Assembly (NCBI GenBank): GCA_951406725.2 | Contig: OX597814.1 | Location: forward strand, 211,358,001 to 211,422,000 | DNA: 64,000 bases | Direction: 5' to 3' | Origin: Octopus vulgaris | Lineage: Eukaryota | Part shown: positions 9,104 to 47,580 of the stretch, piece by piece | Numbering within the stretch: position 1 is the first letter of the stretch | Layout: every line of letters begins with the position of its first letter | Position numbers and translations under genes: made by a program | The notes under the pieces: generated by a model | The model's database searches: none | What the model was told of the DNA's origin: nothing | What the model saw: the letters and a program-made list of their open reading frames with translations, nothing else

Positions 9104-9339
9104 GGCGGCGAGCTGGCAGAAACGTTAGCACGTCGGACGAATTGCGTAGCCATATTTCGTCTGCCGTTACGTTCTGAGTTCAAATTCCGCCGAGGTCGAC
9201 TTTTCCTTTCATCCTTTCGGGGTCGATTAATTAAGTACCATTTACGCACTGGGGTCGATGTAATCGACTTAATACCTATGTATGTCCTTGTTTGTCCCCT
9301 CTGTGTTTAGCCCCTTGTGGGTAATAAAGAAATAGGTAT
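9104..9339 (+). mobile_element. SINE family A (tRNA head plus conserved central domain)
   Basis: GGCGGCGAGCTGGCAGAAACGTTAGC head, B box GTTCAAATTCC, core CCTTTCATCCTTTCGGGGTCGAT..AAGTACC (resembles the MetaSINE central domain, from memory), tail ending AATAAAGAAATAGGTAT. Confidence 0.9.
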
Positions 9340-14906: not shown

Positions 14907-14970
14907 GTCATCGTCGTCGTCATTATCATCATTACTATGATTAGTAGTATTAGTAGTAGTTGTTGTTGCA

Positions 14971-15372
14971 AGGTGGTAAGCTGGCAGCATCGTTAGCACG
15001 CCGGGTAAAATGCTTAGCGGTATTTCGGCTGCCGTTACGTTGTGAGTTCAAATTCCGCCGAGGTCGGCTTTGCCTTTCATCCTTTCGGGGTCGATAAATT
15101 AAGTACCAGTTAAGCACTGGGGTCGATATAATCGACTTAATACCTATGTCTGTCCATGTTTCTCTCCTCTATGTTTAGCCTCTTGTGGGTAATAAAGAAA
15201 TAGAAATAGGTATTTCGCCCGTCGCCCCGTTCTGAGTTCAAATTCTGCCGAGGTCGACTTTGCTTTTTATCCTTTCAGGGTCGATAAATTAAGTACCAGT
15301 GAAACCCTAGTGTCACCCTATTCGACTGGACTCCTTCCCCCAAATTTGAGGTCTTGTGCCTCAAGTAAAAAT
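14971..15372 (+). mobile_element. SINE family A, dimeric form
   Basis: Full unit to ~15210, then a head-truncated second unit starting at GGTATTTCG with a different tail (CCCCAAATTTGAGGTCTTGTGCC). Confidence 0.85.
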
Positions 15373-15419
15373 GATTATTATTAGTAGTTTTATAACTACT
15401 AGTTGGTTGAACCTTTAGG

Positions 15420-15600
15420 ACGCGGGGCATAATGCTTTACGTAATTTCGTCCGTTTTTACGCTCTGAGTTCAAATACTGTCCAGGTCGACTTTGTCTTTC
15501 AGTCTCTCGGGGTCGATTAAATAAGTACCTGTTGAATAGTGAGGTCGATGTAATAGACTCACCCGAATCTATTGGTCTTTTGCCAAAGTTTGAAAGAGAT
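15420..15600 (+). mobile_element. SINE family A, degenerate
   Basis: CTGAGTTCAAAT...GGTCGACTTTG..TTTCA..CGGGGTCGATTAAATAAGTACC core. Confidence 0.8.
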
Positions 15601-15834
15601 TCCACTGTTTCTGCCTTAATACGAAGGTTGTAAAACTTTGTTACTTTAAACTTTAACACACTTTACTTTCAAGCTTCCGGCTATTGATTGTGAAGTAGCC
15701 TTTCTCTCCATTTTCCTTTATCATATTCTGCAGTCCTGTTTTCACCTTTTATTTATTTTGCATATATACATACATACATGTACATACCTACATATATAAG
15801 TTTATGAAAGAATGGAGTTGAACGACTTGTTAAC

Positions 15835-15940
15835 AAATTTCCTTTATTTTCGACATATGTTTCGAAGGCTGCATATTCCTAATTCCGAAGGAATAAGGAG
15901 TACATTATGCAGATTTCTCATCAGGAAAGGCAAGGAACTT
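15835..15940 (-). ncRNA. Type I hammerhead ribozyme, mirror copy on the minus strand
   Basis: Reverse complement of the plus copy. TCATCAG at 15918-15924, cleavage C at 15852. The single difference falls in the unpaired helix I loop. Confidence 0.8.
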
Positions 15941-15960
15941 ATGCATTTTGATGTCGGCAT

Positions 15961-16066
15961 AAGTTCCTTGCCTTTCCTGATGAGAAATCTGCATAATGTA
16001 CTCCTTATTCCTTCGGAATTAGGAATATGCAGCCTTCGAAACATATGTCGAAAAAAAAGGAAATTT
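15961..16066 (+). ncRNA. Type I hammerhead ribozyme (PLE-type, palindromic short helix III)
   Basis: Core CUGAUGA at 15977-15983. Long helix II (GAA..CUGCAUA / UAUGCAG..UUC, apical AUUCC-UUC-GGAAU). GAAA at 16038-16041. Helix III ACAUAUGU. GUC cleavage triplet ending 16049. Helix I UUCCUU-GCC-UUUC / GAAA-AAA-AAGGAA with a 3x3 internal loop. Confidence 0.8.
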
Positions 16067-16276
16067 GTTAACAAGTCGTTCAACTCCATTCTTTCATAAA
16101 CTTATATTTTTAAAATAAACATACAAATTTCCGCACGAAAGCAGGTAGTCTATGCCCTAGAGACGTAACTTCAACCGTGTTCTTTCTGATGTGGATTTGC
16201 TACCCAGGTATCGGTTATCTTTCGAATTATCCTTAATAAGATAATTCATTCAACTACTCAAATATACCTACATATA

Positions 16277-16343
<67 letters not shown>

Positions 16344-16344
16344 G

Positions 16345-17020
16345 CATATACGGGTACAGGACATCAAAAAATGTAGGCAAAATGAGAAACGAGAACATAA
16401 AAACAAAAACAGAAAACGAACTTTTTTTCGAACAACGAAAGAAACAAATAAAGAGAGAAACGAGACAGACAACATAAAGAACATTCCCTTCATCAGTTGT
16501 CCCCTGTTTTATCTACTCCACGTTTCGAAGGTAGGGCCAAGATGCGACTCCGTTAAAACAGTCCCTCCCGCAAGGCAATTTTTATAAAACTTGGGATTTT
16601 TTGCGGAAGGTGAAAGTGGTAACAGAAACAGATCACTGAGAACAAAACAATAAAAACAAACGGTGAGGACTATTAAACCAAGACGATGAGAAATGGTGAA
16701 CGCTGGAAAAACGAGTTCTGAGAAGAGACAGGTAAAAGCATGTTTGTCTTTAGGAAGGAAGTGGAAGAAAGAAAGATGAATGGCCGTTGGTCACGTGTGA
16801 GCAACGAGAGAGTCAAAGAGAAAGAGTGAGATAGACAGAGAGAGGCAACGGTGAAGGGGAGAGGGGAAGAATAGGGAAAGGCTGGGAGAGAAAAATAGAA
16901 AGGAAGAAGAACAAGAGAGACAGATATAGATAAAAAGAATACAGATAGAATAAGAGTGCGCATAATTCTTAAGATAAAACTTTCTTGGAAATAGATGCAT
17001 GCTATTCCATCATATAATAA
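16345..17020 (-). mobile_element. Penelope-like 3' end / pseudo-LTR-like region, decayed
   Basis: Minus-strand QESFILRIMRTL resembles a PLE endonuclease C-terminus. It is followed by a CT-rich tract, CACGTGACC, CGAAACGT (16522-16526) and CTGATGAAG (16490-16496). Its distal end is similar to 47390-47480 (TGTCCTGTACCC.TATATGC). Confidence 0.5.
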
Positions 17021-25164: not shown

Positions 25165-25400
25165 AGGCAGCGAGCTGGCAGAAACGTTAGCACACCGGGC
25201 GAAATGTTTAGCGGTATTTCGTCTGTCGTTATGTTGTGAGTTCAAATTCCGCCGAGGTCGACTTTGCCTTTCATCCTTTCGGGATCGATTAAATAAGTAC
25301 CAGTTACGCACTGGGGTCGATGTAATCGACTTAATACCTATGTCTGTCCTTGTTTGTCCCCTCTATGTTTAGCCCCTTGTGGGTAATAAAGAAATAGGTA
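25165..25400 (+). mobile_element. SINE family A, within a (TAG)n tract
   Basis: Nearly identical to 9104-9339. Confidence 0.9.
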
Positions 25401-34459: not shown

Positions 34460-34855
34460 TCTTTTCTACTCTAGGCACAAGGCCCAAAATTTTGCGGAAG
34501 GGGGATCAGTGGATTAGATCATCCCCCAGTACGCAACTGGTACTTAATTTATCGACCCTAACAGGATGAAAGGCAAAGTTCACTTCGGTGGAATTTGAAG
34601 TAAGAACGTAAAGACAGAGAAAAACTTATTTCTTTACTACCCACAAGGGGCTAAACACAGAGGGGACAAAAAAGGACAGCAGACAAACGGATTAAGTCGA
34701 TTACATCGACCCAAGAGCGTAATTGGTTTTTAATTTATCGACCCCGAAAGGATGAAAGGCAAAGTCGACCTCGGCGGAATTTGAACTCAGAACGTAACGG
34801 CAGACGAAATACGGCTACGCATTTCGCCCGGCGTGCTAACGTTTCTGCCTGTTCA
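34460..34855 (-). mobile_element. SINE family A, dimeric form
   Basis: Same two-unit, two-tail architecture as 14971-15372, in reverse. Confidence 0.9.
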
Positions 34856-34944
34856 CCTCTTTCCAGAATCCAACATATTAACAAAGAAACACACGCCTTC
34901 CCCAACACACGCATGCGCGTATTTGTTTAAAGCTTTTTACTTAA

Positions 34945-38155: not shown

Positions 38156-40650
38156 CTTTCTTTATTGGCCATCAGGGCCGAACACAAAACATAAAGGACT
38201 GTACACAGACGAGGCATAGTGAGGTTAAACGCGAAAACACAGCAAACAAACACAACGATTAACAGAGATTGATTCGACAATATGCTTCCCCAATAGGGAA
38301 GGGGATTCCATTGTACGATGACCAAAGGGACCTCACGCATTTTGGACCCCTTAACACCAACGGATCTTTACGAAGAAACTGTCTCTTCTCCCTTCCATCC
38401 GGCCTACAGGCACTCAAAGTAGGCCCCTTCACGTTAGCCATTCTTGCCACATTCACCCACCTTTCAACGAACCTACTGGGTGACAGTACCTCTTTCTCCC
38501 ACTAACTCTAAAGAGCGAGACGTCGCTAAGAATGCCTCCAGGTGTCTGAAGAAATCCAGCTTCCCCGCTGTAGTCGTTGTGTACACTGTGATTAGTCTAA
38601 AAACACTTCGTTATCGTTCACGTCCAGGACCAACAATTTACCTTCCGGGTCCAGGAAGACCGATCGTATATCGAGATTCAGGCCTTTTCTAAACAAGACT
38701 GCAATCCCACCAACCCATTCCCAGTTGACCAAGAAATGCAAAAATTTCAAAGTCACCGAAAATGGGAGCCAATGATCGTGTGTCCGCAAGCTTGGTCTCA
38801 CTGACGGCTATTACATCCAAACTTAACCACCTGAGGTCGTTGCGCAAGCGTCCTTCCTTCCGCGAAGACCCCATGCTGGTCAGGAAGTGAGGAAAGGAAA
38901 AGGAGTGTCACCCTCCAGGTACATTTTGTGGTTGAGTGGTTCTCTAAGCCTGTCTGTTTTCTTGGGTTTCTCTGGACCCCGCCCCCCTAAAAGCAATCTG
39001 TTGGCCGTTACACTGGCAGACCTAGTGTCATGAGGGTAGCTCCGCTTAATGCTCGTATAAGTCTCTAATGTCATTCGTACCATCATTAGGGTCTCCGGAA
39101 ATCTAAAAGTGTTGGGGCTTCAGATCACCCACTTTGCTTCAATGTTCTCATGTTGTGCTATGAGTGCCACCAACTTTTCATTAGCCTGCTTCACTCGCAC
39201 GAAATTCCGCTGCTACGCGGATGGTTGTTGTTGCTGTAGTGACATTCTTCTTTTTAAAGTTTGTTGTATTTTTTATTCTCTTGTTGGATACTCGTGACTA
39301 TGTTGCTGATTGTAGTACTTGTAGTGTTGTTGTTGTCATCTTTGTGTCTGCTCCCAGTTTCTTGGGTTTCTCCCTTTTATTTCTGTTTTCTTTTACTGGT
39401 TTCTTTTTGCATTTTGGGCTTCTCCACATCATCACTTGGATGCGTTGAGGAGTGCATGTCTTGTGTGTTTTCATCTGGTGTTGTTTGTTCTAGTTCTCTT
39501 ATAGTTGTTGTTGTCATTGCTCCTACTAGTGTAGTTTCCGCCACTGCTGCATGTGCTGCTCCCACTGCTATCTTCACTGTAACACCTGTCTGTTTCGTCT
39601 CCTTGGGTTCAATTTCTCCTTCTATTGCCCTACCTTCTGTTGTGGTTCTTGTTGTTCTTGTTGACTGTTGTTGCTTTTGTTGTGTTCTGGTTCTATGGGC
39701 AGAAAAGCCGTAAGTGACCCGTTGAAACACAATCATGGCATCTCAGCCTGCTACTCTCCACACTCACTCTTAGTTTTACTCCATTCGAGAGGCAAATCAG
39801 GTCTGGAGCTTTCTCTAACTGTTCCAGCTTCACATGGATACGAATCGCCAAGGTAGTCCCAACACAAATTCTCCCTCCTTGATCTTTTAACATCCAAGAG
39901 ATTCTCTCCCCCGTCCGCACAAATACAAGCGAGAATCCACCATAAATCCAGGCCTGGTGAGACTCAAGGTATTGTAATTCGCACAGCCCTTCTTTCCATA
40001 TTGAGAAGGAGGTGATTTTCTCGATGCGACGCGTGGTCACCGAGCTCTGTATCGCCTAACCCTAGGCCTTAAAAAGGACATTTACTCTGATGTACTGCCT
40101 CACTCTCGCAATGTGGTTGATATCCTGTCATAGGTCTTTCAAGGTTTTTACCATTTAGTTGCGTCTAACATTTTTTTAGTTTCCTCCTCTCTGTATTCCC
40201 GCACCTGTAGACGACTGTCCGTTTGGTTGTTCTTTCAAGCACATCGCTTGATGGTGTTAAGTTTGCCCTCCTTCCGTTCATCTTCATTTATTCTGCTGCT
40301 TTGTTTAGATTTTCTTTTTTGTTCTCCAATGAGAGGTTAACCAATTCCTTAACTGCCCTGACATTTGCAAAAGTCTTTTTTCCCGCAGTTGCTTTCAATG
40401 TTGTTCTTCGTGCTACTACAATTTCCATGTAGTGAGGGAAATTTTACTCCTTCCTTCTTCTCGCCATCATTCTGCTTTTCGTTTGGTTTCTTCTTTTCTT
40501 GTCTCTTCTTCTCCTCCTTCTTCTTCTTCTTCTTCTTCTTCTTCTTCTTCTCCTCCCCTCATTCTTCTTCTTTTTCTTCTCCTTTTTCTACTTCTTCTTC
40601 TTCTTCTTCTTCTCCTCCCCTCATTCTTCTTCTTTTTCTTCTCCTTTTTC

Positions 40651-41155: not shown

Positions 41156-41244
<89 letters not shown>

Positions 41245-41247
<3 letters not shown>

Positions 41248-41600
41248 GAAATGCTTTCTAATTGATGTATCAATACCGGCAGATGACAACGTGTCTCTAA
41301 AAGAAATGGAGAAACTCTCAAAATACAAAGACTTGGAAATAGAGGTAACTAGAATGTGGAACCTGAAAACAGAAACAATTCCTATCATAGTAGGTGCATT
41401 AGGCATGATAAAAAAATATTCAGACAAATACATGGCAAAAACACCAGAACTTACAAACACATATAACATACAGAAAATTGCACTACTAGGCACTGCACAC
41501 ATCCTACGCAGAACACTTTCCATACAATAACCATCAGAGCATCACAACAAATCACAGCACATACCCATGGCACACAGAGCTGCGCTCGGTAGTGAAGTGA
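41245..41600 (+). mobile_element. R4/Dong-like LINE, 5'-truncated (RLE endonuclease C-terminus plus 3' UTR)
   Basis: Open frame CFLIDVSIPADDNVSLKEMEKLSKYKDLEIEVTRMWNLKTETIPIIVGALG...IQKIALLGTAHILRRTLS* (stop 41530), directly after (AAT)n. Confidence 0.9.
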
Positions 41601-47364: not shown

Positions 47365-47580
47365 CACACACACATATATATGTGTTTAAGAAAAATGTCC
47401 ATTTCCTATGTTTTCGTTTCTCATTGTTCGACGTTTTTTGGGTGTCCTGTACCCATATATGCATGTATATATACATGTAGAGGTAGGTACGTACATATAT
47501 GTATGTATATATCAATATGTTTTATTTATTTATTAATTATATATATATATATATACACATACTCATATATATGTATATTC

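Follow-up and report, generated by a model that had tools for sequence, protein, structure and literature searches.

A probable folded-back Penelope-like element stump with a hammerhead motif in each arm in Octopus vulgaris

Inserts of Penelope-like elements (PLEs) combine a direct pLTR with a shorter inverted one, carry a one-sided tail, and lie between target-site duplications (TSDs) of 8–10 bp (PMC3846280). According to the same report, the palindromes at their inverted junctions are attributed to self-priming, and microhomology is seen at the 5' junctions. An adjacent inverted, 5'-truncated copy is described as common among PLEs, and several clades show a bias for (TA)n (PMC8557442). The hammerheads of metazoan PLEs have a palindromic helix III, are dimer-dependent, and cleave weakly in vitro (PMC4209133). 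For the PLE of anole, in vitro work reports that AT-rich DNA is cut on both strands, that uncleaved RNA is the main template, and that the hammerhead requires protein (PMC11167929). Both Hammerhead_1 matches and Penelope elements are reported from a squid genome (PMC6962438).

The window analyzed here is a stretch of 64,000 nucleotides (64 kb) from Octopus vulgaris. It contains a locus which is very probably a folded-back PLE stump, that is, a dead-end, 5'-truncated copy whose mirror half was probably made during insertion (Table 1). The name PLE, whose defining link is to an ORF with a telomerase-like RT and a GIY-YIG endonuclease, is putative here and is based on the architecture and the type of ribozyme. 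Inverted-repeat comparison showed that the arms 15794–15944 and 15957–16107 are reverse-complementary at 150 of 151 positions, the only mismatch being 15846 versus 16055, and that they are separated by a spacer of 12 nt (15945–15956). The palindrome described in the initial annotation (arms of 151 bp, one mismatch, 12-nt spacer) is thus borne out. The extent proposed there, 15794–16107, is correct for the palindrome, but the whole element is larger, 15799–16263, with a 15-bp direct repeat at its borders.

This repeat frame was overlooked in the earlier reading. The 15-mer at 15784–15798 is repeated exactly at 16264–16278, and these are the only two copies in the 64-kb window when both strands are checked. 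When 330 15-mers of comparable ending and complexity were examined, no other one was repeated 300–700 nt downstream. The repeat encloses an insert of 465 bp that borders a (TA)n tract. Past the palindrome, and on the right side only, the arm goes on for another 156 bp. The nucleotides 15794–15798 belong to both the repeat and the arm, which makes the left junction one of microhomology and gives the duplication a length of 10–15 bp.

Table 1. Coordinates of the features of the insert and its borders in the window.
Feature	Position	Strand	Remark
Target-site duplication, left copy	15784..15798	+	15 bp; 10–15 bp depending on the assignment of the 5-nt arm overlap
Left-junction 5-nt microhomology	15794..15798	.	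End of the target duplication and reverse complement of 16103–16107
Inverted (fold-back) copy of the forward unit's initial part	15799..15944	-	Family-state base at 15846
Type I hammerhead motif, left arm	15839..15937	-	Core starts at 15924; predicted cut after 15852
Turn	15942..15959	+	Native 3-bp inverted match 15942–15944/15957–15959 around the 12-nt spacer; likely priming hairpin
Forward unit, truncated at its 5' end; pLTR-like terminus of the element	15945..16263	+	Contigs of four runs align
Type I hammerhead motif, right arm	15964..16062	+	Predicted cut after C16049; 19 core and helix III positions with no listed variant
One-sided extension, 156 bp	16108..16263	+	Stem-loops near the 3' end; occurs in the family
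Target-site duplication, right copy	16264..16278	+	Followed by the (TA)n tract to about 16340

As in PLEs, an inverted 5'-truncated copy lies head-to-head with the direct terminal repeat, and a short TSD (10–15 bp) is combined with an AT-rich or microsatellite target, here the adjoining (TA)n. Pen2a, Pen2 and Pen3a of Adineta vaga also have a shorter inverted copy in head-to-head orientation and a palindrome at the inverted junction, and the PLE inserts described from this rotifer are alike in the one-sided extension, the short TSD and the junction with microhomology (PMC3846280). Insertion at (TA)n is shared with the Hydra, Neptune and Naiad clades as described in PMC8557442. The locus differs from EN+ PLE insertions in that it has no ORF inside and consists of the terminal stump alone. 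The extension, 156 bp, is also far longer than the optional tail of 30–40 bp of EN+ PLEs, and among the listed contig ends of the four runs aligned below, no common end at 16107 is seen.

Each arm contains a hammerhead motif. On the plus strand, the core consists of CUGAUGA at 15977–15983, GAAA at 16038–16041 and GUC at 16047–16049, and cleavage is predicted after C16049. Helix I is composed of 4 bp (15973–15976/16050–16053) and 6 bp (15964–15969/16057–16062) with a 3x3 loop between them. Helix II occupies the 54 nt of 15984–16037 and is closed by G10.1-C11.1, while helix III is palindromic, with ACAUAUGU at 16041–16048. The search was done with a custom type I descriptor over the 64-kb window, and windows generated by a Markov model (n = 200) served as the null. 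The descriptor matched twice in the window, once in each arm, and any match was seen in only 6 of the 200 null windows and a match with a palindromic helix III in 1 of 200. Descriptor and folding together thus support, at the level of a predicted motif, the earlier claim of hammerhead core and helices on each strand.

The hammerheads of PLEs (PMC4209133; PAc, PMC11167929) are alike in being type I with the full core, G10.1-C11.1, a palindromic helix III and a predicted dimer. The differences lie in helix II, which is described as 6–8 bp in PLE hammerheads and is an irregular stem of 54 nt here, and in the interval from position 9 to 10.1, where the extra base is lacking. The Rfam models also miss the locus, probably due to the long helix II. 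The search with Rfam hammerhead models, which the initial annotation had suggested, returned 0 matches at the gathering score in the 64-kb window. When E values up to 10 were allowed for 15600–17000, 33 matches were obtained and hammerhead models were absent from them. This mismatch weakens membership in the Rfam families and leaves the reading as a motif standing. Rfam matches to microRNA precursors stayed below the gathering threshold and were rejected, since they reflect nothing but the hairpin.

In the predicted monomer, helix III is formed with a pair probability of 0.02–0.03. The double-hammerhead form predicted for two copies has -54.6 kcal/mol, compared with 2 x -23.6 kcal/mol for the separate folds. 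Helix III is thus stable solely in the predicted dimer, and activity of the hammerhead is predicted to depend on dimerization or on the help of protein.

Another CUGAUGA, on the minus strand at 16496, forms no hammerhead under the descriptor. It lies in a repeat remnant at 16345–16600, where GAAAC is present and the minus-strand CUGAUGA downstream stands in an order that is not type I. A copy of 16345–16399 with 84% identity is found at 47407–47461.

Public sequencing runs contain relatives of the insert. A portion of the insert is present in 20 of the 24 listed runs, and contigs from four of them (X1, X3, X4 and X8, from four studies and with three organism labels) were aligned to 15920–16282, a stretch that takes in the left arm only from 15920 on and starts beyond the left junction. 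No RNA run carrying the insert is found among the 24, and X8 is RNA by guess only. The aligned contigs number 1735 in X1, 935 in X3, 876 in X4 and 189 in X8, where contig depth is not equal to copy number. Those of X1 are divided by likeness into 413 (99% or higher), 422 (95–99%), 563 (90–95%) and 337 (below 90%). We read this spread as that of a putative diverged multicopy family, in all four aligned runs. The bin 15920–15932 is without cover in the four runs and no contig spans the whole stretch, although such holes in contigs prove nothing.

Several contigs cross the entire helix II with 0–2 gaps, which indicates that the 54-nt helix is native to the family. Apparent short forms of helix II among the loose ends were really substitution variants of 15992–16006. 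At least 38 variable positions are listed on the aligned stretch. Of the listed variants, 1 falls on the 45 core and helix positions and 37 fall on the remaining 274 (Fisher p = 0.017), a rarity that is consistent with the conservation of core and helices in other copies that the initial annotation called for. The single variant is A16052G, which changes U-A to U-G and keeps the pairing. For core and helix III alone, 0 of 19 positions versus 38 of 300 are variable among the variants listed, which is not significant (p = 0.083).

This copy departs from nearly all of the aligned depth at no position in the left arm, at 1 in the right arm and at 3 in the unpaired extension of 156 bp. These numbers indicate that youth alone accounts for the identity of the arms, and the homogenization offered earlier as an option is unnecessary. 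The one position in the right arm is 16055, where nearly all contig depth of the aligned runs has T, the state of the left arm. The A of the right arm, which creates a run of nine A, should therefore be a later change or a consensus error in the A run. The initial annotation correctly placed the sole difference in the helix I loop, but this says little since, by our own count, about half of the arm is neither core nor helix, and T, as in the left arm, is the state of the family.

The 3' part of the extension, 16183–16260, is common to family members that have different upstream sequence, with 12 loose ends of X1 before 16183. It is predicted to fold into stem-loops and might be a candidate recognition or initiation signal. 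It starts with CUGAUG without the A9 of the core.

There is no second copy of the family in the 64-kb window, and no locus was found when metagenome and viral contigs were scanned for its pattern. Pfam has no match for the 39-aa frame (15980–16096) that overlies the ribozyme. The end of an ORF at the TAA of 15960–15962, considered by eye because 30 letters upstream in an X1 loose end, in frame with 15942–15962, are free of earlier stops, was rejected since 16 open codons are common by chance. A search limited to the published literature found no description of the family. The supplementary lists of PLE hammerheads of PMC8557442 and PMC4209133 may already include this family or similar forms with a long helix.

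The contigs also shed light on the turn of the palindrome. Contigs of other copies start aligning at 15942 and run through the spacer, and the sequence further upstream is unlike the left arm. Seven contigs in X1 and two in X8 continue upstream past the turn. As the other copies continue through the turn, the spacer and 15942–15944 are ordinary element sequence. Folding of the first strand by its 3' end onto the 3-bp match, followed by extension, would give this geometry. A match of 3 bp can also be due to chance, with a probability of roughly 2% by our own estimate. One contig of X4 has a different joint to the opposite strand, 15991/16057. It is the single hint of turns at different places in each copy, and is possibly another fold-back copy.

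Based on these observations, the insertion might have proceeded as follows. The endonuclease of the element would cut an AT-rich site beside the (TA)n tract, and reverse transcription would start from the 3' end of the element (16263) and reach about 15942, passing the uncut hammerhead on the way. There the new strand would pair by its 3' end with the native 3-bp match located 12 nt back, and the folded strand would be extended by about 146–151 nt, copying itself. The extended strand would be joined to the other target end via the 5-nt match, and repair would leave the target duplication of 10–15 bp. The hammerhead would be inherited cargo of the terminal repeat. The young inverted PLE terminus proposed in the initial annotation agrees with the TSD, the one-sided extension, the native spacer, the microhomologies at the junctions and the multicopy family.

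A similar structure would result from two separately primed strands meeting head-to-head, an alternative based on the PLE enzyme of anole, which is reported to extend both strands (PMC11167929). Fold-back is favored, short of proof, by the 3-bp match native to the element and by the left arm, whose end is long and matches the target.

The initial annotation left the choice between a PLE terminus and a retrozyme. In the latter case, the unit would be the monomer of a non-LTR retrozyme, which is non-autonomous and has a circular RNA intermediate, inserted in the same fold-back manner by PLE enzymes. The forward unit of 319 bp is near the monomers of about 300–390 bp, and the type I hammerhead, the low GC and the long TSD agree as well (PMC7229834). 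The metazoan elements described there are non-coding units of about 300 bp with TSDs longer than 4 bp, and retrozymes have been proposed to be derivatives of PLEs (bioRxiv 10.64898/2026.07.22.740005). Such a monomer should, however, be found head to tail. Among the listed contig joints, none connects the 3' end with the 5' start, although a monomer longer than the unit is conceivable. No tandem copy is present in the 64-kb window, and the upstream letters of other copies in X1 and X8 contigs are, as judged by eye, unlike the 3' end of the unit. The locus also lacks the canonical short helix II, whose 4 bp are required for the loop contacts. The PLE part of the earlier proposal is thus retained, and the retrozyme is an unlikely reading.

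The initial annotation considered the palindrome a built-in switch. The claim is not supported: the motifs are on opposite strands, the hairpin is favored in read-through, and the turn is not common to the copies. No single transcript carries both motifs. From either side, the antisense arm is transcribed first, and the 151-bp hairpin is predicted at -261 kcal/mol versus -23.6 kcal/mol for the ribozyme fold, so read-through is predicted to be off. The part of the claim in which a read-through hairpin of about 150 bp locks the ribozyme is therefore supported by prediction. The other part, self-cleavage of an RNA starting in the spacer, is not, as helix III of the monomer is predicted barely to form. 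A second ribozyme state would need central starts and a partner RNA.

It can be speculated that two identical promoters of the terminal repeat, set back to back by the fold-back, give divergent RNAs with one hammerhead each that pair in trans via the palindromic helix III to form an active double ribozyme, while read-through gives a dsRNA of 151 bp open to editing or silencing, so that one insertion would create a two-state element; we regard this as very unlikely. If true, the two-state element would use a variant hammerhead with a long helix II that is missed by the Rfam models. That the palindrome acts as a functional switch or source of dsRNA, with read-through locking the ribozyme and central starts yielding two pairable identical RNAs, is extremely unlikely. 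In its favor, neither motif is damaged, stability is predicted for the hairpin as well as for the trans dimer, and bidirectional promoter motifs have been proposed for pLTRs (PMC3846280). But the insert looks young (arms 150/151, TSD 15/15), and the intactness of the motifs requires no selection. Besides, other copies bearing the spacer do not turn at this point, the monomer helix III is predicted to be barely populated, and minimal PLE hammerheads are reported to cleave poorly or to require protein (PMC11167929, PMC4209133).

A>G differences among the contigs were considered as A-to-I editing and rejected, because the same differences occur in runs guessed to be DNA. Transcribed long inverted repeats are open to editing or dicing, and the same is conceivable for the hairpin of this palindrome.

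Although inverted structures of PLEs trouble assemblies (PMC8557442) and the nine-A run at the lone arm difference could be a consensus error, there is hardly any chance that the palindrome arose as a fold-back artifact of the assembly or library, as the two flanks are unlike each other, the arms differ at one base, and a chimera would presumably mirror the flank too and not resume the forward strand inside the 15-bp duplication.

The surrounding animal DNA is rich in microsatellites and SINEs. A SINE-like family, putatively octopus-like, has at least 10 copies in the window, including 14967–15152, 15400–15600, 9107–9284, 25172–25346 and 34680–34865. An open frame at 41234–41530 on the plus strand presumably resembles the C-terminal restriction-like endonuclease of R4/Dong-type non-LTR elements; it adjoins an (AAT)n tract and has no Pfam match at E = 0.1. 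Another open frame, 39696–40055 on the minus strand, ends in a pattern like a CCHC zinc knuckle and is possibly a remnant of a retroelement ORF1; the Pfam search gave no match for it.

The palindrome is genuine, and the locus is young, in good condition and unremarkable within its class; it is not a new system. The hammerhead with a long helix II is a modest addition, and comparable families escape the Rfam models. Read as a folded-back PLE stump, the locus records cleanly, and at a young age, the head-to-head inversion of PLEs: the native loop, the 3-bp priming, the 5-nt joining and the target duplication are readable. Such junctions across the family could separate fold-back self-priming from two-strand priming, a choice left open in the account of PMC3846280.
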